A DNA stretch of 29,921 nt from Candidatus Krumholzibacteriia bacterium (GTDB lineage Bacteria; Krumholzibacteriota; Krumholzibacteriia; WVZY01). The translations under genes and the position numbers were made by a program. This document shows positions 2 through 29,920 of the stretch, one piece after another; within the stretch, counting starts at the first letter, position 1, and every line of letters begins with the position of its first letter. The DNA lies in assembly GCA_036478295.1 (NCBI GenBank), contig JAZGDW010000044.1, positions 1-29,921 on the forward strand, read 5' to 3'. The notes beneath the pieces were generated by a model. That model was not told where the DNA came from and made no database searches. It saw only the letters and a list, made by a program, of their open reading frames with translations.

Positions 2-106
2 GTCATTGGGCTCGTGTTCTGCTCTGCGATTGGGATTATCTTCGGTATATTGCCCGCGATAAGGGCATCGAGACTTCATCCCGTCGATGCGCTGCGCTAC
101 GAATAA
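2..106 (+). CDS. 3' end (partial) of MacB/FtsX-family ABC transporter permease
   Basis: Manual translation VIGLVFCSAIGIIFGILPAIRASRLHPVDALRYE* matches the typical C-terminal motif G..FG..PA.RA..L.PV.ALRYE of MacB-type permeases; runs off the left edge. Confidence 0.85.
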   Translation, partial: VIGLVFCSAIGIIFGILPAIRASRLHPVDALRYE

Positions 107-2559: not shown

Positions 2560-3822
2560 TCAGAGCTTACTCAATGCCAACAACCTGGAACGATCCCGTA
2601 CGGGGACGCCGGCGACATCGGCAAAATCGCTGAACGCGTCCCTGTCGATGAGTTCGCGGTTGCAGGCTTCGGCCGCGAGCGCGGCCAATCGAGAACAGAG
2701 AGAATCCGTTTCGTACGGTGCGGCTTTCAACACCAATGCTTTCTGTGCACGCCGGCCCGCGTCGGTACCGATCATTCGTTCGAATCTTTCGATCTGTTCA
2801 TCGCTCAGGAGCCGGAGGTTCCGCAAGCGGTGTGCAGTCAGCGCGCGAGTCGAACCGTAGTAGTGAGCGAGTAGGGTCAGATCCGAGAAGTTGATCGGGT
2901 GTCGGCCCTCTCGAGTACGACCGTCGACGCGCAAGTTGTCTCCGCGCTCGCTCCCACGCTCGCCCTCGAAGTAGACGGAAAGAACGGTGCGTCCCGATCG
3001 GCCGAGCGTCTCTTTGCCCAACGTCTCGAGGTACCGCCGCACGCCGTGCTCGGGAAGCAGGAACCCCGCAGCAAACGCGTTCGCCCGCACCTCTTGAAAG
3101 TCCATCTCCGCACCGGTGCCGCAGACGCGCCACGGCAGATGGCGGTCGAACAGGGCGTGGGCCAGGCCGTGTGCGTAGTTGAGACGGCGGCGCCCGACAC
3201 TGGCGTCTTCATCCACGACCACGAGGCACCCGATCTCCGGAGAGTTCGCGAAAATCGAGCTCACGCCCCGGGGAAGTCGTGCTCTCGCCGTGCGGACGCC
3301 CATCGAGGTGACGAGTTCGTCGACGAACCGAATCGGGCTTTCACCGAGAGCGAGGCGCCGCCGCTCGTCTTCTGAGGCGCGGTATCCCTGACGAGCCGCG
3401 TGCCAGGAGGTCTCGGGCCGAGTGTCGGCGTAAATCGGCAAGACGTTCGCAATCGCCTCGAAGCCGAGTGTCGACTCGACGGTGGTCAGCATTCGAGCAA
3501 CGCGGAAAACCTGTTGAAACGAGAGGTGTTTCTCCTCCTCTTCCTGGAGCTCCGGTAGCGCCGCGAACAACTCACGCAAGACAATGTCTCCCCGTTGAGT
3601 CCCGCTGTGATACTCGATCGACAGCAGCTCGCCCGTACTACAGCCGTAGCGGAGCGCCAGCCGGTCGACATCTTTGGCTTTTACCGCACGCTTGCCGTTC
3701 TCCATCTGAGCGACGCTCGACCGTGAGACTCCGAGGGTCGGGGCGATGTCCGCCTGGGTCAGACCCCGGGACTTCCTGGCCTCTCGAAGAACCTGGCCTA
3801 TGTCTCTGGCTCGTTCCGCCAT
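2560..3822 (-). CDS. XRE-family HTH regulator fused to ImmA/IrrE (M78) metallopeptidase-like domain
   Basis: N-terminal HTH (LREARKSRGLTQADIAPTLGVSRSSVAQMENGKR); RRRLNYAHGLAH...QEVRANAFAAGFLLP matches the RRRF..AHE.GH...E..AN.FA...L.P pattern except Glu to Gly; RBS GAGG. Confidence 0.88.
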   Translation of the reverse strand: MAERARDIGQVLREARKSRGLTQADIAPTLGVSRSSVAQMENGKRAVKAKDVDRLALRYGCSTGELLSIEYHSGTQRGDIVLRELFAALPELQEEEEKHLSFQQVFRVARMLTTVESTLGFEAIANVLPIYADTRPETSWHAARQGYRASEDERRRLALGESPIRFVDELVTSMGVRTARARLPRGVSSIFANSPEIGCLVVVDEDASVGRRRLNYAHGLAHALFDRHLPWRVCGTGAEMDFQEVRANAFAAGFLLPEHGVRRYLETLGKETLGRSGRTVLSVYFEGERGSERGDNLRVDGRTREGRHPINFSDLTLLAHYYGSTRALTAHRLRNLRLLSDEQIERFERMIGTDAGRRAQKALVLKAAPYETDSLCSRLAALAAEACNRELIDRDAFSDFADVAGVPVRDRSRLLALSKL

Positions 3823-8367: not shown

Positions 8368-9045
8368 TTGAAACGTCCCATATTGAGTCAATCGATGCGA
8401 AACTATCTCAAGGTTATTTACGAGATTCTTGAGAAGCAGAATCGTGCGACGACGTCCGCTATCGCTGAGCGGATGGGATTGTCATCGCCGTCAGTGACTT
8501 CAATGATCAAACGACTGGCCGAACTCAATCTCGTGCGGCACAAACCCTACCAGGGCGTGAATCTCACGCGAAAGGGCGAGCGTACTGCAGTGGAGATCAT
8601 CCGCCATCACCGCCTGATCGAACTCTATCTGGCGGATTCTCTCGGGGTCCCTTGGGATCAGGTCCACGACGAGGCCGAGAAACTCCAGCACGCCATATCA
8701 GAGGATCTCGAGGGCCGTATGGCTGCAGCGCTCGGTAATCCCAGTGTTGATCCGCATGGGGCGCCGATCCCCGCGCGTGATGGCTCGGTCGTTCGTGTCG
8801 AGGGTGTTTCACTTTTCGAGATCGAACCGGGTGAATCAGTGATCGTGCTCGAAGTCGGTGACCGGAATCCGGAGTTGCTACGCCATCTCGGTAATTTGCA
8901 CCTCTACCCAGGTACCGAGATCGACGTCGTTCGTGTGGAGCCCTTTGGCGGTCCGTTGGTTATCCGCGCTGACGGGCGGGAGTTCATTCTGGGTCGTGCG
9001 GCGGCGGGGGAGATCCTTGTGTCGCGTTCCCGGGAACGGGGGTAA
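8368..9045 (+). CDS. DtxR/MntR-family metal-dependent regulator with C-terminal FeoA (SH3) domain
   Basis: YLKVIYE winged HTH, HRLIE, HDEAEKLQH, DPHGAPIP, LYPGTEI..PFGGP FeoA-like tail; TTG start behind GAGG. Confidence 0.9.
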   Translation: MKRPILSQSMRNYLKVIYEILEKQNRATTSAIAERMGLSSPSVTSMIKRLAELNLVRHKPYQGVNLTRKGERTAVEIIRHHRLIELYLADSLGVPWDQVHDEAEKLQHAISEDLEGRMAAALGNPSVDPHGAPIPARDGSVVRVEGVSLFEIEPGESVIVLEVGDRNPELLRHLGNLHLYPGTEIDVVRVEPFGGPLVIRADGREFILGRAAAGEILVSRSRERG

Positions 9046-9050
9046 TCGAT

Positions 9051-10085
9051 ATGGGTTCGCCGATCTCGATCATTATCTCGCTCGTCTTTCTGGTGGGAGC
9101 GGCCGTCGGCCTGTGGTGGCCGGGGATAGGCTTGTTGGTCCGCGGCACCGCGCGAGCCACGCGAGAACGGATCCTCACCGAGGACGCGCTCAAACACATC
9201 TACGACGGTGAATACCGCGGGCACACCGTGCCTATCACGAGTGTCGCGGGCGCGCTGGAGGTCTCGGTAACGCGTGCGGTCGAACTTGTTGATCGTATGC
9301 AGGCGGTGGGACTCGTCTCGCTCCGCGACGGACGACTGCTTTTGACCGAAGAAGGCAACCGTTATGCGCTGCAGGTCATTCGTGCGCACCGCCTTTGGGA
9401 GCGCTACCTGGCAGACGAAACCGGTATCGCTTCGACGGAGTGGCACGCCAAGGCAGAGCGACGGGAGCATACGATGACGCCCGTCGAGATTGACGAGTTG
9501 GCAAGCAAACTGGGTCACCCGAGGTTCGATCCGCACGGTGACCCGATTCCCACGGCCGACGGCACGATACAGGAGATTCCAGTCTTGGCGCTCTCCGATC
9601 TCGAAGTCGGTGATCGCGCCCAGGTTGTTCACATCGAGGACGAGCCGGAGATTCTCTACGCGCAGCTCGTCGCCATGGGCGTGTATGTCGGTATGGTTGT
9701 GCACGTCCAAGCCAAAACCGACAAACGTATGATACTTGATGCCGACGAGCGCGCCCTGGTGATCGCGCCGTTACTCGCCGCAAATATTTCGATCCAGCCG
9801 TTAGAGGTCATCGAGGCGCCGGAGCACGAGGGCCCAGAACGTACGCTCGCCGAACTCGGGGCCGGAGAGGTTGCGGTGGTCGACCGGATCAGCCCGGCGT
9901 GCCGGGGAATCGAGCGTCGAAGGCTGATGGATCTCGGGATCGTACCGGGAACACGTGTTGTGTTCGAGCGGAGAGGTATGACCGGAGGGCTCTCGGCATA
10001 CCGCGTCCGGGGCGCCTTGATAGCGATCCGTGAAGAACAGGCCGCCGTGATTTACATTCACCGCATCAACGAGGTGGCGCAATGA
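9051..10085 (+). CDS. DtxR-family protein with N-terminal TM helix and two FeoA domains
   Basis: Hydrophobic N-terminus, EDALKHI, HRLWERYL, WHAKAERREH, DPHGDPIP, then two FeoA-like repeats (LVAMGVYVG; RRLMDLGIVPG). Confidence 0.85.
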   Translation: MGSPISIIISLVFLVGAAVGLWWPGIGLLVRGTARATRERILTEDALKHIYDGEYRGHTVPITSVAGALEVSVTRAVELVDRMQAVGLVSLRDGRLLLTEEGNRYALQVIRAHRLWERYLADETGIASTEWHAKAERREHTMTPVEIDELASKLGHPRFDPHGDPIPTADGTIQEIPVLALSDLEVGDRAQVVHIEDEPEILYAQLVAMGVYVGMVVHVQAKTDKRMILDADERALVIAPLLAANISIQPLEVIEAPEHEGPERTLAELGAGEVAVVDRISPACRGIERRRLMDLGIVPGTRVVFERRGMTGGLSAYRVRGALIAIREEQAAVIYIHRINEVAQ

Positions 10086-12325
10086 GTGAGCGCACTCCAC
10101 AAGCCTGCGAGACGTGTCCCGCCCACCATGCCGGCAACCTGATCAAGCTCGGCGTGAATATGAAGCGGTTCGATTACGTGGTCGCGCTCGCCGGCAACCC
10201 GAACACGGGCAAAAGCACCGTGTTCAACGCCATCACCGGCCTGCGCCAGCATACCGGTAACTGGCCAGGCAAGACAGTCGCGCGCGCCGAAGGAGGGTTC
10301 GGGCTTGGCGACGCGCGGTACAAACTGGTCGATCTGCCGGGCACCTACTCGCTCATGACGACGACGGTCGATGAGGAGATCGCACGAAACTTTATCCTGT
10401 TTGCGCGACCGGACGTCACGGTGGTCGTGGTGGATGCCAACCACCTCGAACGCAACCTGAACGTGGTCCTACAAGTTCTTGAGATTACCGACCGAGCTGT
10501 TGTCTGTCTCAACCTGGTCGACGAAGCGAAGCGCCACGGACGACGCATCGACCATCGAAGGCTCGCGCGGGACCTCGGCGTGCCCGTCATACCAACCGTC
10601 GCAAATAAACGCGAAGGAATCGATGCGCTCCTGGATGCCATTGTACAAGTGGCCTCTGGCGAGACCGTGTGCGAGCCGCGACGCATCAAACGACGGGATG
10701 TCGGGGCAGAGCGTGTGGTGAGCGAGCTTGCGGAGGAGATCGAGAACTGGCTTCCGGGACTATCCAACGCACGTTGGGTGGCGCTTCGCCTTCTCGACGG
10801 TGACCGGCGCCTCGAAGAGGCGCTTCGGAGCGGCGAACTAATCGATCTTAGCCGCCAGGCCGCTTCGGCAGAAACGATGGCCGGCGCGGGTTCGACCGCG
10901 TTGCCCGATTCCGCGGCGGCCGGGATTCTCGCACACTCACGCACGCTGCGGTGGGAACTCGGTGTCGGGTTTCACGACACGATCACGGAGAATCTCTACA
11001 CAGAGGCGGCGCGGATCGCCGAGCGTGCGACACTGATCGACGACGAGAAACCTCGATTCGACCTCGACCGGTTTATCGACGACGTTGTGACGAGCCGATG
11101 GTTAGGCTTTCCGTTCATGTTATTGCTTCTGACAGGTGTCTTCTGGGTAACGATCGCCGGCGCTAACGTGCCTTCGGCACTGCTGTCGACGCTTCTGATC
11201 GACAAAGTCCATCCAGTGCTTCTGTCGCTCGGCGAGACACTCCGTTTTCCATGGTGGCTTTCAGGGTTCTTGTTCGATGGTGCCTACCTGGCCACCGCGT
11301 GGGTCATAGCGGTCATGCTTCCACCGATGGCAATTTTTTTCCCGCTGTTTACGCTGCTCGAAGATTTGGGCTACCTTGCTCGCGTCTCGTTCAATCTCGA
11401 CGGCATGTTCAAGCGCGCGGGCGCGCACGGCAAGCAAGCGCTGACAATGAGTATGGGGTTTGGGTGCAATGCGGCTGGTGTCGTTGCGACTCGGATTATC
11501 GACAGCCGCCGTGAACGGTTGATCGCGATCATCACGAACAACTTTGCGCTTTGCAACGGACGATGGCCGACCCAGATTCTGATTGCCACGATTTTTATCG
11601 GTGGCGTTGTTCCGGCGCATCTCGCCGGCCTGGCCTCCGCCTCAGCTGTAGTTGGCGTTGCGGTGCTTGGTGTCGCAATGACGGTCGGAGTCTCATGGTT
11701 CTTGTCGAGGACGATGCTCAGAGGGGAGCCGTCATCTTTCAGCCTCGAGTTACCACCGTATCGCAAGCCACGGTTCTGGCACACGCTGTATACATCTCTT
11801 ATCGATCGCACGATCTTTGTGCTCTGGAGAGCGATTGTATTTGCCGTGCCAGCAGGGGCGGTGATCTGGCTTTCGTCTAATATCGATGTTGGCAGCGCGA
11901 GCATCGCCGAACATCTCGTTGGTTGGCTCGACCCGGTTGGGTTGATCCTCGGGCTCAACGGCGTGATTCTGCTGGCCTACATCGTGGCGATCCCCGCGAA
12001 TGAGATTGTCATCCCAACGATTCTGATGCTCACCGTAACAACCGCCGGGGTCGCTGGGCTTGGCGAGGGGACCGGCGTGATGTTCGAGCTGGAATCGGTC
12101 ACCGGTACGAGCTCCATCCTGGCACTAGGGGGTTGGACACTGTTGACAGGCGTCAACCTTATGCTTTTTAGCTTGTTGCACAACCCCTGTACGACCACGA
12201 TATACACGATCTGGAAAGAAACCCATTCCAGGCGCTGGACGACAGTCGCGACGATGCTACCGCTGGTGATCGGGATCGGCGTCTGTCTCCTGGTCGCGCA
12301 GGTGTGGCACCTCTTTGCCGGTTAG
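10082..12325 (+). CDS. feoB: Ferrous iron (or Mn) transport protein B
   Basis: G1 GNPNTGKS, G2 NWPGKT, G3 DLPG, G4 NLVD; EDLGYLAR, GFGCNA, ELPPYRKP, PC motifs; ATGA overlap with the upstream gene. Confidence 0.95.
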   Translation: MSERTPQACETCPAHHAGNLIKLGVNMKRFDYVVALAGNPNTGKSTVFNAITGLRQHTGNWPGKTVARAEGGFGLGDARYKLVDLPGTYSLMTTTVDEEIARNFILFARPDVTVVVVDANHLERNLNVVLQVLEITDRAVVCLNLVDEAKRHGRRIDHRRLARDLGVPVIPTVANKREGIDALLDAIVQVASGETVCEPRRIKRRDVGAERVVSELAEEIENWLPGLSNARWVALRLLDGDRRLEEALRSGELIDLSRQAASAETMAGAGSTALPDSAAAGILAHSRTLRWELGVGFHDTITENLYTEAARIAERATLIDDEKPRFDLDRFIDDVVTSRWLGFPFMLLLLTGVFWVTIAGANVPSALLSTLLIDKVHPVLLSLGETLRFPWWLSGFLFDGAYLATAWVIAVMLPPMAIFFPLFTLLEDLGYLARVSFNLDGMFKRAGAHGKQALTMSMGFGCNAAGVVATRIIDSRRERLIAIITNNFALCNGRWPTQILIATIFIGGVVPAHLAGLASASAVVGVAVLGVAMTVGVSWFLSRTMLRGEPSSFSLELPPYRKPRFWHTLYTSLIDRTIFVLWRAIVFAVPAGAVIWLSSNIDVGSASIAEHLVGWLDPVGLILGLNGVILLAYIVAIPANEIVIPTILMLTVTTAGVAGLGEGTGVMFELESVTGTSSILALGGWTLLTGVNLMLFSLLHNPCTTTIYTIWKETHSRRWTTVATMLPLVIGIGVCLLVAQVWHLFAG

Positions 12326-23524: not shown

Positions 23525-23879
23525 GGGGGCGATTTGGGCTCGACGGGGATAGTGGAGTGTAGGCTGCGTGTCGAGATTGCCATGAGCTCGTAAAAACTGT
23601 GGTAAACCAAGAAGTGTCGACGAACCAGTCGCACTGGCTGCCTAACTAAGCAGCTCGTCCTGCGTGGGATGGGTCTCCAGGACCCACGTGAGGGCGTCAT
23701 CCACTGGGGAATAGCCGGCGAGGAGAGCCCTGGCTTCACTGGCGAAATTTAAGGGTGGGCCGCCCGGTGATCCTGTTTGTGGGGAGCCCGGGTGGCGGGA
23801 TCAAAACCACGAACTACACACGTAGACGCTTGCATGGATCTTTCTTCGGACGCGGGTTCGATTCCCGCCGCCTCCACCA
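23525..23879 (+). ncRNA. ssrA: tmRNA (transfer-messenger RNA), tag peptide (A)VDEPVALAA
   Basis: 5' GGGGGCG pairs with 3' CGCCTCC-A-CCA including the G3-U Ala determinant; T-arm GCGGG-TTCGATT-CCCGC; tag frame 23616-23645 ends LAA-TAA; 355 nt. Confidence 0.96.
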
Positions 23880-23935
23880 GTTTGCTCGTTGCACTCGCCA
23901 AGCAGGCGCCGGACAAGCTCCGCCGCCTCCACTAA
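23873..23935 (+). repeat. Left copy of ~62-bp tmRNA-linked direct repeat
   Basis: Aligns by eye to 29441-29502 at 50 of 63 positions; contains a second copy of the tmRNA end, CCGCCGCCTCCAC (23920-23932). Confidence 0.85.
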
Positions 23936-24064
23936 GTCTCTCTCCACCCAACTTCTTGTTGTCACTTGCGTGGCCAGTGTAGAGGGCTCCACCGGCTGCG
24001 GCCTCGAGAGCAACCCCAGAGGAACATTCTGGAAAAGCCCGGAGCGGGACGGTCTGAGGCAAAC

Positions 24065-24080
24065 ATTGACAATTGTCAAT
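24065..24080. promoter_or_regulatory. Perfect 16-bp palindrome (TTGAC-N4-GTCAA, CRP/FNR-like)
   Basis: ATTGACAATTGTCAAT in an AT-rich patch upstream of the kinase gene. Confidence 0.55.
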
Positions 24081-24244
24081 TAATAGCTTAATGCCTGAAT
24101 GTCAAGTTCATGGTACGTTTAGTCATCAAAAGCCGCTCGCCTGAGGGACCGCAGGTTCCGAAAATATCGCATGGGTGAATCGATTCGTCCCGCGCGTCCG
24201 CGCGGGTCGGTCCAAATACACAAATAGCGCTTTGCGGGGTGCAC

Positions 24245-26578
24245 ATGTTAGGGAAGACAATCTCCCATTACCGCATACTCGACAAACTCGGTGAGGGCGG
24301 TATGGGTGTCGTTTACAAGGCCCACGACACGAAACTCGATCGCACGGTTGCCCTGAAGTTTCTATCGCCTCGTGTCGTCGATCGGGATGCCGAAAAGACA
24401 CGATTTGTCCACGAGGCCAAGTCCGTGGCAGCGTTGCACCACCCAAACATCTGCACGATCCACGAGATCGACGAGTTCGAAGGGCAGTTATTCATCTCGA
24501 TGGCGTACATAGAGGGAACGAGCCTGCGCGATCAGATTGCCGATGGGCGGGTCGGTGTCGCAGAGGCAATCGACACCGTCATGCAAATCTGCTCCGCGCT
24601 CCAGGAAGCCCACGACAAGGCAATCGTCCACCGCGACGTCAAACCCGCGAACATCATGCTCGAGCAGTCCGGTCGAGCTGTGTTAATGGACTTCGGCCTC
24701 GCGCGCCAGAAAGACGCTACGCGACTCACGCGAACCGGCACAACGGTAGGGACAGTTGCGTACATGTCACCCGAACAGCTGCGCGGCGATGAACTCGACG
24801 GCAGGAGTGATCTGTGGTCGCTCGGCGTGGTCTTGTACGAACTTCTCGCTGGTTGCTTGCCTTTCAAGGGGGAAGTCGAACCGGCTCTCATCTACTCGAT
24901 CATGAATGAGGATACCGAGCCGATCGTCTCTCACCTTGCAGGCGCGCCCGCGGGTCTCGAAGGCATTCTGGCACGGGCGCTTGCGAAAGACCCAGTGGAG
25001 CGGTATGCCAGCGCGGCGGAGCTCCGTGCCGACCTGGAGGAGGTTCGCAGCGACCCCGAAGCGTTTCCCGCGGGGGTGCCCCGCCGCAGGTCCACTCGTA
25101 AGCGTGTTTTCGCCGGGGTCGCAGGTCTGCTGGCGGTTGTTGCGGCGTTTTTCCTCGTATCCAGGATTTTCTTCGACGGCCAGGCGCGTGCATCGATCGC
25201 CGTCTTACCGTGCATCAATGTGAGCGGTGACCCCGATCACGAGTATCTGAGCGACGGGATAACGGAAGATCTCATTTTGCATTTCTCCAGGCTCAACGGG
25301 TTCCGGGTCCTGAATCCGATGACCATGTTCCAGTATAAAGGAACCGAAAAGAGCTCGCGTGAGATCGCCGGGGAGCTCAACGCGACCGTCCTCCTTCGTT
25401 CGCGCATGCGAATGAACGGGGATCGGATCGAGCTATCCGTCCAGCTCATCGACCCCGGGACGGACGAGATCGCATGGGCCGATCAGTACAACGAGCCTGT
25501 CAGTAACATACAAAACGCTCAACGCAAGCTGGTCCTGGAAGTCGCACAATCGCTGAATGTGGTTCCGGCGTCGGCAGAGAGGCAACGCCTGGAGCAGACA
25601 TCCCCCGTCGACCGTGAGGCGTACCTGGCATATCAGCGCGGCAGGGCATTAATGAGAGCACGCACGCAACACGGCATGGAAAAAGCCATCGAGTACTTTC
25701 AGGCAGCGATCGCAGCGGACTCTACCTGGGCCCTGCCCGTTGCGGGGCTCGCCGAAGCACACATGGTGTTTGCTAACCCCTACTATCGGCAGGGACAGTT
25801 ATCCTACGAAGAGCTGACAAGCTTGGCAGAGAAAGACTCCATAAGATGGAAAGAAATGGCCAAGCGAGCGCTCACGCTAGACCCGAACCTCGCCGAGGCT
25901 CATATGGTCATTGGCGACTACGAGAAGGCTCTCGAGATTAACCCCAATCTTGCTTGGGGCTACTACTACCATAGCCTGGCTCTTGGCGAAATTGGACAAC
26001 ACGATCGCGCGATCGAGGCAGCCGAGACAGCGGTATCCCTGGATCCCGGAAACCTTGTCATGAACGTTATCCTGGGAAAGATACTCACGCTGGCACGAAG
26101 GTACGACCGCGCCGAGCGGCAACTGATCGAGAGCATAGACATGGATCCCGAACACAGCGCCGCCTACGTCGAGCTACTCTTGCTACACGTTATGAAGGGC
26201 GAGTACAAAAAAGCCATCGAGCCCATGAAGAAGTTCGTCGAAATCGAAGGGGGACAACCCGAAGCTTTCGTACCGATGCTCCGCGCCGCCGCGGGTGAAA
26301 TCGATGTCGACGAGCGCGTGCTTTCAATCGTTACTGCCGTCAAAAAGCTGTACGGACCCCACAGCGCCGCCTGGTGTTATGCGATGCTGTCCCGCTACGA
26401 CAACGCGCTGGACTGCCTCGAGGAGGCATTCGAGTTGGGCGGATCAAAGGTTTACCTTGTCCATCAGTACCCGATGTTCGATCCGATCCAGTCAGAGCCC
26501 CGGCTTGTAAAGCTGCGTCAGCGTATGGCCGAACGAATCGCTGAGATGCAGCGCGGGGAAAAGGAGGTTCGACGATGA
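24245..26578 (+). CDS. Ser/Thr protein kinase with TM helix, TolB-N-like domain and TPR repeats
   Basis: GEGGMGVVY, VALK, HRDVKPAN, DFG, YMSPE; TM VFAGVAGLLAVVAAFFLV; SIAVLP...YLSDGITEDLI; TPR-like ALxLDPN repeats. Confidence 0.93.
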   Translation: MLGKTISHYRILDKLGEGGMGVVYKAHDTKLDRTVALKFLSPRVVDRDAEKTRFVHEAKSVAALHHPNICTIHEIDEFEGQLFISMAYIEGTSLRDQIADGRVGVAEAIDTVMQICSALQEAHDKAIVHRDVKPANIMLEQSGRAVLMDFGLARQKDATRLTRTGTTVGTVAYMSPEQLRGDELDGRSDLWSLGVVLYELLAGCLPFKGEVEPALIYSIMNEDTEPIVSHLAGAPAGLEGILARALAKDPVERYASAAELRADLEEVRSDPEAFPAGVPRRRSTRKRVFAGVAGLLAVVAAFFLVSRIFFDGQARASIAVLPCINVSGDPDHEYLSDGITEDLILHFSRLNGFRVLNPMTMFQYKGTEKSSREIAGELNATVLLRSRMRMNGDRIELSVQLIDPGTDEIAWADQYNEPVSNIQNAQRKLVLEVAQSLNVVPASAERQRLEQTSPVDREAYLAYQRGRALMRARTQHGMEKAIEYFQAAIAADSTWALPVAGLAEAHMVFANPYYRQGQLSYEELTSLAEKDSIRWKEMAKRALTLDPNLAEAHMVIGDYEKALEINPNLAWGYYYHSLALGEIGQHDRAIEAAETAVSLDPGNLVMNVILGKILTLARRYDRAERQLIESIDMDPEHSAAYVELLLLHVMKGEYKKAIEPMKKFVEIEGGQPEAFVPMLRAAAGEIDVDERVLSIVTAVKKLYGPHSAAWCYAMLSRYDNALDCLEEAFELGGSKVYLVHQYPMFDPIQSEPRLVKLRQRMAERIAEMQRGEKEVRR

Positions 26579-29133
26579 TTTCCACAAAGGCCTGGTTTAG
26601 CTGTCTAGTTATGTTCGCCGCTGTTGCATCGGATGCATCCGCTGTAACGTCCCCTGTCGCTGGACGCATTGTCGACGTTTCGTCCCGGAAACCTGTTGCG
26701 TATGCGGCGGTCACGATGGTGGATAGTGCGGGTACCGTCGTTGGTTGGTTTCTTGCGACCGATCAGGGCGAGTTCTACTTCGAAAGGGACCTGGGTCAGA
26801 GTGTGACGCTCATGGCCAGCCATATTGGGTATCACCTTACCCGGCGTGAAGTTATGGCGGGTGATCGCGATACATCGGGCATCACGATTTCGATGGAGCC
26901 AAACCTCTTCGTGGCCGCGCCGATCGTAGTTAGCGCTTCAAGACGGCGTGAGACGAGCTTCGATGCGCCGGCCTCTGTGACCGTGATCAAAGGCTCGGAA
27001 GTCGGGCGGCAGCAGAGTTTCACGCCCTTGGACCCGATAAAGAACACTATGGGCATAACCTTTTCGAGAAAGGGGCTCCTCGCCGCTACTTTTAACACGC
27101 GGTTCAGGAGCGGCGTGATGAACGGCGGCACGCTGGTTCTACAGGATCACCGCTATACCCGGCTCCCGACCCTGCAACTCAACATTCCCTATCTTCTCGC
27201 TTCCAATCCGGCTGACATCGATCAAATCGAGATCATCCGAGGACCAGCGGCTTCACTCTACGGCCCGGAGGGAGGTTTGGGCGTCGTCCACATCAAGACG
27301 AAATCACCGTTCGATCAACAGGCTACGTCGGTGTCCTTCGCAGGAGGAGAGCGATCCGTGTTCGAGACCTGGGTGAGTCATTCGGCGTTGTTGGGCGAGA
27401 ATCTCGGTTATCGGGTCTCGAGCAAGTACTTTCGCGGCGAGGACTGGCTGCCAAGGGACCCCGCGATAAGAGAACAGGCACACGAAACGCTGGAGCAAGC
27501 CACGAGCAGCGCTCAAGTCGAGTGGCGGCCGGATGCGGAGACGAGGCTGATCGCGCGCGGCGGAACTGCCTACGTTTTCGAAATCCTGGACCAGGCTCCC
27601 GCAACTTATGCCCAGTTAAACGACTTCAGCTTCAATTATGCGCAGCTAGAGTTCCACAAGCGACGTTTCATGACGAATCTGGCCTACAGCGGGAACGACG
27701 CCGGTGAGACGTTCTTTGTTCCGAGCAATGTACGGTTTATTGACCGATCGTTTCTCCTTGCAGGCCAGATCCTGAATGCACAGGATGTGCGGATTGGAAA
27801 GACGCTGCATCAGTTGTCGTACGGGGTTGACTGGCGAAACTCGATCATACGATCCGAAGGCACGTTGACGGGTCGTTTCGAGGACGACGATACCGTGACA
27901 GAGATCGGTGCATACACTCAGGTGACGTCCGTTGTATCACCGAAATGGGATGTGGTGGCTTCCGTGCGCGCGGATCATCACGATCGGCTGGCAAATGGAA
28001 CTGCATTTCCGTTCCGATTGGGAGTTGTGTTCGAGCCCAAGCGATCGCGCCACGCGCTCCGGCTCACCTTCAATCGTTCCGATGGAGCGCCATCTCCCAG
28101 CGTGTTATTCGAGGACTTCCCAATTGGGGGACAGACGCCGTTCCAGCTGAAGGTCGTCGGGATTCCAAAGGGGGGGTGGACCTTTCCGCGCGACGCCAAC
28201 GGCGGGTTTCTCATGCGCTCGGCGTTCGTCCCAGGAGGGCTTGACGACTTTGGAACCGCCGATGCGACGCGCACGTGGGGCGCGTTGCAGGCGATGATCC
28301 CACAGCTCGCGTCCGTCCCGGCCCCGTCTTCCAGCGAAGCCCAAACGGATCTGCGGATCTTCCAAGTGGGAAGCGGATTTGTTCCCTTCAACCCCGGTGA
28401 GCTTCAGGATGTGCACCAGTTGGAGCGGACAGTCAGCGAGTACGTGGAACTCGGTTACAAGGGGCTGCCGATGGACAATCTGGAGATCAACATCGATGGC
28501 TTCGTGAATCGAAGAACGAAAGGTCTAACCACCGAGCTGCGAGCCATCACGCCGAACGTTTTTTATGACGTCAACACGCTCGAGACGTACTTGTCCGGGT
28601 TCATGACCCCTGCCGAGGCGGCCGCTGTCGCGCAGCAGGTGTCATCCAATCCGGTCGGCACCGTTGCACCCCGTGAGGCGGGGAGCAGTTCCGAAATCCT
28701 GTTAGCGTTTGCCCCGCTCGACGGGGCCCGAACGAGCTGGGGCATAGACATCAACGCCCGGGTTGCGCTGGTCGACCAGTTTTCCCTGGCGGCCACCTAC
28801 GGATATCACCGGGCCGATGCGCGGGACGAATTCACTTCTGTTCCGCAAAACAGAGGGGCCGTGCGGCTCGAGTATCAGCGACCGTCGGACAGCTTTGCCG
28901 CCGCGTTGCAGGTCCGGAGCCAGTCACCGTATACCATGGACGTGGCAGTCTGGACGGGTAAGGTCGAATCGTTCACAGTCGTCGATCTGGATGTCGCGTA
29001 CCGTCCCGATTGGCTGTCTCGTGTCCAACTCTTTGTTAATGTGAGCAATTTGCTTGACGAAGAGCACGTGGAAATCGTGGGCGGAAAAGAGCTCGGCCGT
29101 CTCGCAACCGCCAGAATCCAGTTTGATTTCTAG
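26575..29133 (+). CDS. TonB-dependent receptor
   Basis: Signal peptide, carboxypeptidase-regulatory-like N-domain, IVVSASRR, plug motif IEIIRGPAASLYG..GVVHI.TK, C-terminal NLLDE...F; ATGA overlap with the kinase. Confidence 0.92.
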   Translation: MISTKAWFSCLVMFAAVASDASAVTSPVAGRIVDVSSRKPVAYAAVTMVDSAGTVVGWFLATDQGEFYFERDLGQSVTLMASHIGYHLTRREVMAGDRDTSGITISMEPNLFVAAPIVVSASRRRETSFDAPASVTVIKGSEVGRQQSFTPLDPIKNTMGITFSRKGLLAATFNTRFRSGVMNGGTLVLQDHRYTRLPTLQLNIPYLLASNPADIDQIEIIRGPAASLYGPEGGLGVVHIKTKSPFDQQATSVSFAGGERSVFETWVSHSALLGENLGYRVSSKYFRGEDWLPRDPAIREQAHETLEQATSSAQVEWRPDAETRLIARGGTAYVFEILDQAPATYAQLNDFSFNYAQLEFHKRRFMTNLAYSGNDAGETFFVPSNVRFIDRSFLLAGQILNAQDVRIGKTLHQLSYGVDWRNSIIRSEGTLTGRFEDDDTVTEIGAYTQVTSVVSPKWDVVASVRADHHDRLANGTAFPFRLGVVFEPKRSRHALRLTFNRSDGAPSPSVLFEDFPIGGQTPFQLKVVGIPKGGWTFPRDANGGFLMRSAFVPGGLDDFGTADATRTWGALQAMIPQLASVPAPSSSEAQTDLRIFQVGSGFVPFNPGELQDVHQLERTVSEYVELGYKGLPMDNLEINIDGFVNRRTKGLTTELRAITPNVFYDVNTLETYLSGFMTPAEAAAVAQQVSSNPVGTVAPREAGSSSEILLAFAPLDGARTSWGIDINARVALVDQFSLAATYGYHRADARDEFTSVPQNRGAVRLEYQRPSDSFAAALQVRSQSPYTMDVAVWTGKVESFTVVDLDVAYRPDWLSRVQLFVNVSNLLDEEHVEIVGGKELGRLATARIQFDF

Positions 29134-29216
29134 TCGCCAGGTCGTCTGTCGCCTTTGCTTTCTCCTCCGTGCCGTCGTCCGACCGGCGTCGTGTGGTCGG
29201 GCGGGAAAGGGCTGCA

Positions 29217-29447
29217 TCAGCCCATCGGACGATTGGGGAGACGGTCAAGCCACGCGATCGCCTTGGATACCGTCTTATCTGTGACGTGGAGCCTCCTGGC
29301 GATCGCCGAACAGCTCATGCCAAGCTGTTGAAGGTGAAGTGCCTTCCCGGCGATTCGCTGGTAGGCTGGTGCGGCGCGTGTGTCCACGAGGGCAACTTCC
29401 AGGGGTACCTGAGCGGCGGTTCGAATTCTTTGCGTCCGTGTCCACCA
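29217..29447 (-). pseudogene. Start-less HTH-containing reading frame (candidate displaced recombinase C-terminus)
   Basis: Manual translation WWTRTQRIRTAAQVPLEVALVDTRAAPAYQRIAGKALHLQQLGMSCSAIARRLHVTDKTVSKAIAWLDRLPNRPMG*; in-frame TAA directly upstream; GMS.SAIARRL.V...TV is a classic HTH pattern; absent from the ORF track. Confidence 0.6.
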
Positions 29448-29502
29448 TTATGTTCGCTTCGCTCACCAAGCAGACGTCGGACAGGCCCGCCGCTTCCACC
29501 AA
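29441..29502 (+). repeat. Right copy of ~62-bp tmRNA-linked direct repeat
   Basis: Begins TCCACCA; ends with CCCGCCGCTTCCACCA (29486-29501), 15 of 16 identical to the tmRNA 3' end at 23864-23879. Confidence 0.85.
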
Positions 29503-29578: not shown

Positions 29579-29920
29579 TTACAATCCGCCGGCATCCGTC
29601 GTACGCAGGATCGTCCCGTCACGCCCCACGATTGTGCCCGTCTTGCTTCCGCTGAAGAAGACGGCCAGGAGGGCGTTCGTGGTACCACCGGGTTGACTCT
29701 CCCAGTTGATGCCACCGTCCGTCGTACGCCGAATGATACCGGTTTGGCCGACGACGGTGCCCGTTGATGCGCTTGTGAAGAACACACCGAAGAGATTGCC
29801 GCTGGTACCACTCGGCTGAAACACCCAGTTGTCACCGCCATCCGTCGTTCGCCGCATTTGCCCTTTGTCCCCAACCACGATCCCGGTGTTCGCGTCAGTG
29901 AAGAATACACCCGTGATATC
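29579..29920 (-). CDS. 3' end (partial) of YCF48/BNR-repeat beta-propeller protein
   Basis: Repeats of GVFF....TG.VVG..G.I.RTTDGG.NW; runs off the right edge. Confidence 0.85.
   Translation of the reverse strand, partial: DITGVFFTDANTGIVVGDKGQMRRTTDGGDNWVFQPSGTSGNLFGVFFTSASTGTVVGQTGIIRRTTDGGINWESQPGGTTNALLAVFFSGSKTGTIVGRDGTILRTTDAGGL

Follow-up and report, generated by a model that had tools for sequence, protein, structure and literature searches.

The DNA analysed here, referred to as the window, is an entire contig (C256, 29,921 nucleotides) of a 91%-complete genome of a Candidatus Krumholzibacteriia bacterium. A transfer-messenger RNA (tmRNA, ssrA) gene, an integration target, lies at 23525..23879 on the plus strand (ARAGORN), and a sequence resembling its 3' end recurs 5.6 kb downstream. 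We find that this second site (29418-29447) is almost certainly the attR, comprising P arm, TC core and B' side, of a family of large serine recombinases (LSRs) which targets the 3' ends of tmRNA and tRNA-Ala genes, and that a C-terminal helix-turn-helix (HTH) tail of the LSR type is still encoded there. The segment between the two sites, with its kinase and receptor genes, is best read as a fused remnant that stacked islands left behind, and not as an excisable cassette.

The two sites share the same motifs at different spacing, namely GGTTCGA-N11-TCCACCA at 23855-23879, which is the 3' end of the tmRNA gene, and GGTTCGA-N16-TCCACCA at 29418-29447. A sequence-only reading made earlier on this DNA had placed them at these positions; the window contains no further match, and 100 shuffles gave a mean of 0.00. 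According to the accessible text of PMC3783163, the binding motif of serine integrases is located 5 bp closer to the centre in attB than in attP, and the two sites follow this rule with half-sites of 18 and 23 bp. In the tmRNA, the B half-site spans 23855-23872 with the T-loop motif at -18..-12, the probable crossover dinucleotide TC is found at 23873-23874 (its centre taken from natural fused sites) and the terminal CACCA follows. In the attR, the P half-site spans 29418-29440 with the motif at -23..-17, as judged from the sequence and the fused-site comparison, followed by the probable crossover TC at 29441-29442 and the B' side at 29443-29460 (all on the plus strand). Nine natural fused sites contain 23-bp inverted arms (17-22 of 23 positions matching) around a central TC and yield a 48-bp attP centred on this dinucleotide, with which the P half of the window agrees. 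Binding of the enzyme at the shifted motif is predicted from this geometry. No motif bias was detected in the B' half-site across 73 sites, and the TCG at +12..14 in both flanks of the window is therefore considered to be a chance match.

The assignment as attR is carried by a headless frame of 76 codons on the minus strand (29217..29447), which had been overlooked in the sequence-only reading. The frame opens within the core of the second motif (encoding WW) immediately behind an in-frame stop codon, matches HTH_23 (Pfam, E 2e-5) and corresponds to the C-terminal ~70 residues of LSRs elsewhere, indicating that it probably represents the linker and HTH of an LSR left behind at attR. All seven longer homologues (7/7) begin to align at the WW of the core. 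LSR sequence precedes the tail in two of them, P0005 (PF07508 and PF13408, i.e. recombinase and zinc ribbon; tail 73% identical to the window frame) and P0001, while the leaders of the other five are unrelated. A profile built from 15 tails retrieved 479 representatives at E<=1e-10; among the best 150 of these, 127 contain the decapeptide encoded by the att site; 14 of these follow immediately on an LSR-like end, and the leaders of another 6 are homologous to LSRs. At the level of DNA, the tail of the window is at most about 77% identical to other loci. A structural model of one natural fused protein was of low confidence overall (pLDDT 60, pTM 0.33), and hence only its HTH segment was used; here, the tail folds into three helices (pLDDT 84-93) as a unit of its own and follows a linker predicted with low confidence. 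The whole model resembles solved serine integrases (Foldseek E 8e-7), and a sequence search of the PDB with the tail profile gave weak HTH matches (E 0.04-0.06). Tails were intact at 59 and broken at 31 of 90 sites, and their pN/pS ratio was about 0.13-0.33 in autonomous elements, i.e. constrained, versus a relaxed 0.35-0.42 in three LSR-less units sharing the same cargo. Independent expression of the tail was considered and rejected, as 49 intact tails share no conserved in-frame start. Given this pattern of constraint and the lack of a conserved start codon, the tails behave as gene fragments.

A metagenome scan returned 80 LSR loci, of which 9 duplicates and 12 loci with the junction cut off were dropped. 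In the remaining 59 distinct loci, the LSR gene reads into a tmRNA (14/59), a tRNA-Ala (19/59), a T-loop motif spaced as in a tRNA but with no gene called (18/59), the HTH tail to which it is fused (3/59) or other sequence (5/59), and a tmRNA/tRNA-type 3' end is thus reached via the P' arm in 51 of the 59 loci. The inverted P' arm that the sequence-only reading had predicted from the window is what follows directly behind the tmRNA or tRNA-Ala end in these intact relatives. Among the complete metagenome elements, 12 of 14 measure 2687-2819 bp. The element at locus L036 encodes a MerR-like protein of 198 residues (a weak match, E 5e-4), a 63-residue protein and a 560-residue LSR; the LSR of this relative of the window matches PF00239, PF07508 and PF13408 (resolvase, recombinase and zinc-ribbon domains), and NCBIfam gave only sub-threshold CcrB/XisF matches for the enzyme. 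The MerR-like gene precedes the LSR gene in at least 12 elements but does not do so in L177 or L013/L199; it and the 63-residue protein may act as directionality or regulatory factors. The family also inserts at copies of the tmRNA end (L049, L060, L153). At L209, L210 and L218 the P arm is unaltered but the core differs and tRNA-Phe is the target, a target switch within the family. At L168, L191, L207 and L223 the P' arm recurs one base nearer to the core than in the canonical site, either as a variant site or as a recurrent lesion. Among viral contigs, two matches to the pattern were obtained and neither is a relative. Our search of the open-access literature, covering main texts, found no paper on this family, which large LSR catalogues could nevertheless list.

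The left end of the segment does not complete the element. The inverted P' arm was absent behind the tmRNA and elsewhere in the assembly at up to 3 mismatches, the sole match at this threshold being the P arm itself read backwards, which confirms across the assembly a caveat raised in the sequence-only reading. The site at 23855..23879 is on this evidence attB-like and not an attL, because its terminal CACCA follows the TC with no P' arm behind it, and a cognate attL (B plus P') was accordingly not found at this end. We detected no match to the cognate LSR at 1e-60 in the 91%-complete genome, and none of the 21 open reading frames scanned in the window matched a recombinase family (Pfam). The observation that the sequence behind the tmRNA resembles B' was reproduced: the downstream flanks of the two motifs share 76% identity across 51 nt and, in a longer alignment, 79% across 63 nt (E 1e-7). 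This sequence is a lineage-specific mini-repeat of ~55 bp, present on the plus strand as copy 1 (23880..23934) and copy 2 (29448..29501), each terminating in a degenerate, 16-nt version of the tmRNA 3' end (23919-23934 and 29486-29501, respectively). A profile made from five copies, each directly behind a tmRNA-type end, found one further copy, and all six belong to the source genome and same-family relatives. Similarity of the left flank to other loci ends at about 23932 and consists entirely of mini-repeat, and folding of the copies revealed no shared structure. The mini-repeat occurs behind the tmRNA itself, behind the LSR arm and behind a second arm family; as it follows any arm type, it is not a target duplication made by the LSR.

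The second arm family punctuates contig C184 of the source genome four times and is found in many relatives; a search for an integrase behind it gave only 8 short unannotated matches. On C184, four more copies of the tmRNA 3' end separate single cargo genes, each copy being preceded by a conserved ~150-bp arm that encodes another headless peptide, and one decayed copy is located on contig C224. At locus L151 (2531-2700), a tRNA-Lys is immediately followed by only the last ~50 nt of a tmRNA and a mini-repeat, which looks as if most of the tmRNA had been deleted there. The genome contains four other LSRs (contigs C36, C21, C195 and C98), which end in different junctions. Three of these share a near-identical ~35-residue C-terminal tail behind a tRNA-like junction and one reads into tRNA-Asn; the sequences suggest that other LSR families share the design of an attP inside the gene.

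Units without an integrase are the norm in this family. An exact scan of GTDB for the P arm returned 65 stretches with the same 16-nt arm, labelled Krumholzibacteriota, Acidobacteriota, Deltaproteobacteria, Gemmatimonadota and Actinomycetes, among others. They represent 47 distinct units for which both ends can be seen. Three of these possess P' and a whole LSR, 13 possess P' without an LSR, six carry similar non-P' flanks left and right, just as the window does, and the remaining 25 are remodelled in other ways. Among 208 genomes of the phylum the tail was present in 18 and the cognate LSR in five, none of which matched full-length and none of which is the source genome. Tandem arrays of P arms are common, as are deletion-fused hybrids of neighbouring islands at tmRNA loci, and hybrids of the mirror type, in which P' forms the left end and the second arm family the right end, were observed at L148, L153 and L154. 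A 409-residue cargo protein with a P-loop-like motif lies beside the HTH tail in four genomes (L123, L124, L125 and L139), where it occupies different array positions. A recurrent flank of ~28 bp, which contains a direct repeat of 7 bp and may be the left end of a tyrosine-integrase element, is found behind the tmRNA and behind P arms in several genomes (L176, L183, L188, L201, L205 and L167).

The 5.6-kb segment is probably an immobilised composite, in which a deletion removed the left arm and the integrase of an LSR element from a stack of islands at the tmRNA; we hold the composite history as such to be slightly more likely than not. The starting point would be an element of ~2.8 kb (MerR-like protein, 63-residue protein, 560-residue LSR) whose attP, formed by 23-bp inverted arms on either side of TC, lies within the LSR gene. 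Its partner would be the TC of TCCACCA, either in the 3' end of the tmRNA itself or in a copy of this end further downstream, with the T-loop motif used 5 bp nearer to the centre. The CACCA supplied by P' would restore the RNA end, and the C-terminal HTH of the enzyme would be severed and stay at attR. Other islands, here with the kinase and the receptor, may have entered the same hotspot, giving a stack in the order tmRNA, repeat, kinase, receptor, tmRNA-end copy, P', LSR, MerR, tail, P and repeat. One deletion in this stack, joining the left part of those islands to the right end of the LSR element, would produce the arrangement of the window. Since the left end is B plus non-P' and the right end P plus B', the unit would present the pair attB x attR, which the accessible text of PMC3783163 describes as unproductive for the serine integrases studied, and the segment would thus be stuck. 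On these grounds it is presumably immobile.

Several observations weigh against this explanation. The intergenic stretch 29134-29216 shows no deletion breakpoint and no clear remnant of the right end of a second island, and the tail frame and P arm of the window are intact, which is not required of a long-dead remnant. The 47 GTDB units were chosen by their exact P arm, a selection that favours units keeping P and losing P', and the 13 of them that hold both arms without an LSR make a once-coherent cassette a real alternative. With the genome 91% complete, the cognate LSR could also be unassembled. Finally, no close relative supplied an empty or an intact allele (in the same-genus genome G001 the tmRNA was not matched in full, and no empty site was found), and low-coverage contig sets from four of ten listed read runs contained no junction, that is, no joint spanning the segment and one 75-nt skip inside the kinase gene. 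For its part, the sequence-only reading had taken the 5.6 kb for one mobilisable unit with the kinase and receptor as cargo of the LSR element. Its attR and 5-bp geometry stand, and the second motif is indeed tied to recombinases elsewhere. Neither the single unit nor the cargo status was borne out: the left end is no cognate attL, the genome yielded no cognate LSR, neither an empty site nor a junction came to light, and deletion-fused hybrids abound at such loci.

Should the kinase and receptor instead have replaced the LSR within one two-armed, non-autonomous element, mobilised by an LSR in trans and with its P' arm overwritten or deleted only later, the units retaining both arms without an LSR (e.g. 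L169, L170, L203, L223) would be its living counterparts. The recurrence of the same 409-residue cargo gene beside the tail in different genomes and the mere 84 bp between the stops of receptor and tail fit such a history. Nevertheless, no trace of P' or of the 3' end of an LSR gene is seen behind the tmRNA, where the flank similarity is all mini-repeat, and the mini-repeat copies are merely 76% alike and also occur at non-LSR sites. We regard this history as unlikely, albeit to be taken seriously. A more radical version dispenses with the left arm altogether: as B' is unconstrained, an LSR in trans could accept P plus any flank and pair it with the tmRNA site, so that a unit of tmRNA, flank, cargo, tail and P would be mobile in the manner of an integron cassette. 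The lack of motif bias in B' at the 73 sites, the 31 of 47 units without P', the tandem P-arm arrays and the like flanks at both ends of six other units (above the 99th percentile of cross-locus pairs) speak for it. Against it stand the exclusion of attB x attR for the serine integrases covered by the accessible text of PMC3783163, an unbiased scan of the phylum in which, as we read the rows, P' arms were about as common as P arms (25/46 rows for P', versus 27/45 rows for P at up to 2 mismatches), and the mirror case of P' without a tail-bearing P arm in four same-family genomes, and overall it appears improbable. Equally doubtful is an extension according to which the tmRNA and tRNA-Ala arrays of these bacteria would be the serine-recombinase analogue of integrons, with a roaming 2.8-kb helper moving single-armed cassettes and the HTH acting as a donated direction switch. 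If this were true, a cassette would consist of any flank, cargo, HTH tail and P arm inserted into an RNA 3' end, and could donate the severed HTH in frame to a neighbouring integrase gene and so change its direction; the unit of kinase and receptor would count among these cassettes. In comparison with integron cassette arrays (IntI, attC hairpins), the sites described here fit LSR geometry instead.

Homologous recombination between conserved anchors, the tmRNA being the left one and the tail or mini-repeat the right one, could have swapped the contents of the segment, with the att site as just an old passive anchor. In support, the genes behind the tmRNA differ in every relative and the cognate LSR is rare in the phylum (5/208 genomes, none full-length); however, the anchors are short and diverged, and we consider a swap very improbable. 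The remaining possibility, that the second motif is a chance match or a damaged tmRNA fragment unrelated to serine recombinases, draws on the agreement of only 7+7 bases with the tmRNA end and on a segment GC content equal to that of the genome (0.57-0.61 vs 0.60; the GC profile of the window shows no contrast for the segment). As the 16-nt arm recurs in 65 GTDB stretches and encodes an LSR tail, and in view of the tail homologues, the LSR loci and the natural fused sites, we regard it as refuted for practical purposes. This leaves the deletion-fused composite as the preferred explanation, and it is this composite and its family that we compare with known systems.

Decay of stacked islands, integrase-less units and integrases overlapping their att sites were all known beforehand; here they are met in a variant family. 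The closest precedent is provided by the ssrA islands of Dehalococcoides. In the accessible part of PMC3146451 these are described as tandem islands behind ssrA with a gene for the serine recombinase DsiB that overlaps attL and perhaps becomes whole only in the circular form or when it lies behind a neighbouring island, and 15 islands lack an integration module. The tandem islands and the overlap of the LSR gene with attL are likewise seen in our relatives, and tandem islands in the array on C184. The Dehalococcoides description gives a 20-bp direct repeat with insertion in the T-loop and a six-gene module (dsiB, dsiA, recF-like, parB, mom and others), whereas here 7 bases are shared, the crossover probably lies at the TC of the acceptor stem, and the element has three genes in ~2.8 kb; on the basis of repeat length, crossover and module, we consider the present family a variant and not a member, as set apart by that description. 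Unlike in the islands as described there, the severed tail is a folded HTH, tRNA-Ala and tRNA-Phe are targeted as well, and several phyla are involved.

The Int protein of Mx8 is a tyrosine recombinase carried by a phage. As given in the accessible part of PMC6070905, its attP lies inside int, and integration provides the enzyme with a new C-terminus and changed activity. In our family the enzyme is an LSR and the part lost is an HTH domain; by analogy with Mx8, the swap of tails would tune integration versus excision in intact elements. The 'suicidal' archaeal integrases of the SSV type, which use tRNA targets, also have an att site that is part of the integrase gene, but according to the accessible text of PMC7253208 these tyrosine enzymes are inactivated by the split, and tandems, which would rebuild the whole gene, were not seen. 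By contrast, the serine enzyme described here keeps all three Pfam domains in its integrated 560-residue form, and tandems are common. With the phage-borne large serine integrases A118/LI, phiC31 and Bxb1, as portrayed in the accessible part of PMC3783163, it shares the resolvase, recombinase and zinc-ribbon domains, a 48-bp symmetric attP around a dinucleotide and the motif positions (-23..-17 in P, -18..-12 in B), and it differs from them in a B' without motif, an attP inside the integrase gene and the 3' end of a stable RNA as target. Cis-mobilizable elements (CIMEs) are decayed, integrase-less units stacked by accretion at one att site which keep both attL and attR (PMC5704250, accessible part); the window retains only attR, and 13 of the 47 related units do keep both arms.

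For the locus itself the gain is small, the decayed end of an island, and the family it derives from is the more useful outcome. The element of this family is a compact LSR unit that takes the conserved 3' end of tmRNA and tRNA-Ala as its attB, with an apparently free B' side. As the attB is conserved and att sites and crossover can be read from natural sequences, the LSR is a candidate for a broad-host integration tool. Because the severed part is a discrete HTH domain, McMurdie's question of whether such an integrase is fully functional only on the circle becomes directly testable. TIGER and Islander require an integrase gene (PMC12424338), and integrase-less units are therefore invisible to both; according to the Islander paper of 2014, no serine integrase was known to use a tRNA gene as its target (PMC4383910).

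The two genes enclosed by the sites, both on the plus strand, encode a Ser/Thr kinase with TPR repeats (24245..26578, 777 residues) and a TonB-dependent receptor (26575..29133, 852 residues), as identified with Pfam. Judged by their distribution, both are accessory genes. For the kinase, only paralogues of 25-39% identity were present among 35 relatives of the order, and for the receptor none of 120 relatives of the class gave a match at E<=1e-40. The best non-self database homologue of the receptor is 40% identical, and most named homologues are from Gemmatimonadota; an identical receptor is encoded on a longer contig of 48 kb. All fetched loci of relatives differ downstream of the tmRNA, and relatives lack the kinase and receptor beside ssrA, so that the stable carriage which would have spoken against an island was not observed. 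Beyond the attR, the 3' part of a repeat-protein gene (29579..29920, minus strand) shares 56% identity with one of the genes in the array of tmRNA fragments on C184, suggesting that an array continues beyond the end of the contig.

A scan of 23800-24300 for promoters and terminators found none. The tag assigned to the tmRNA by ARAGORN looks wrong; a likelier tag is the frame 23616-23645, whose ending ALAA followed by a stop resembles the tags called in two relatives. Elsewhere in the window, the region 2560-3822 contains an HTH-IrrE (peptidase M78) gene, and an iron-uptake cluster at 8368-12325 comprises DtxR/FeoA, DtxR/FeoA and FeoB, i.e. includes two fusions of a regulator with FeoA.

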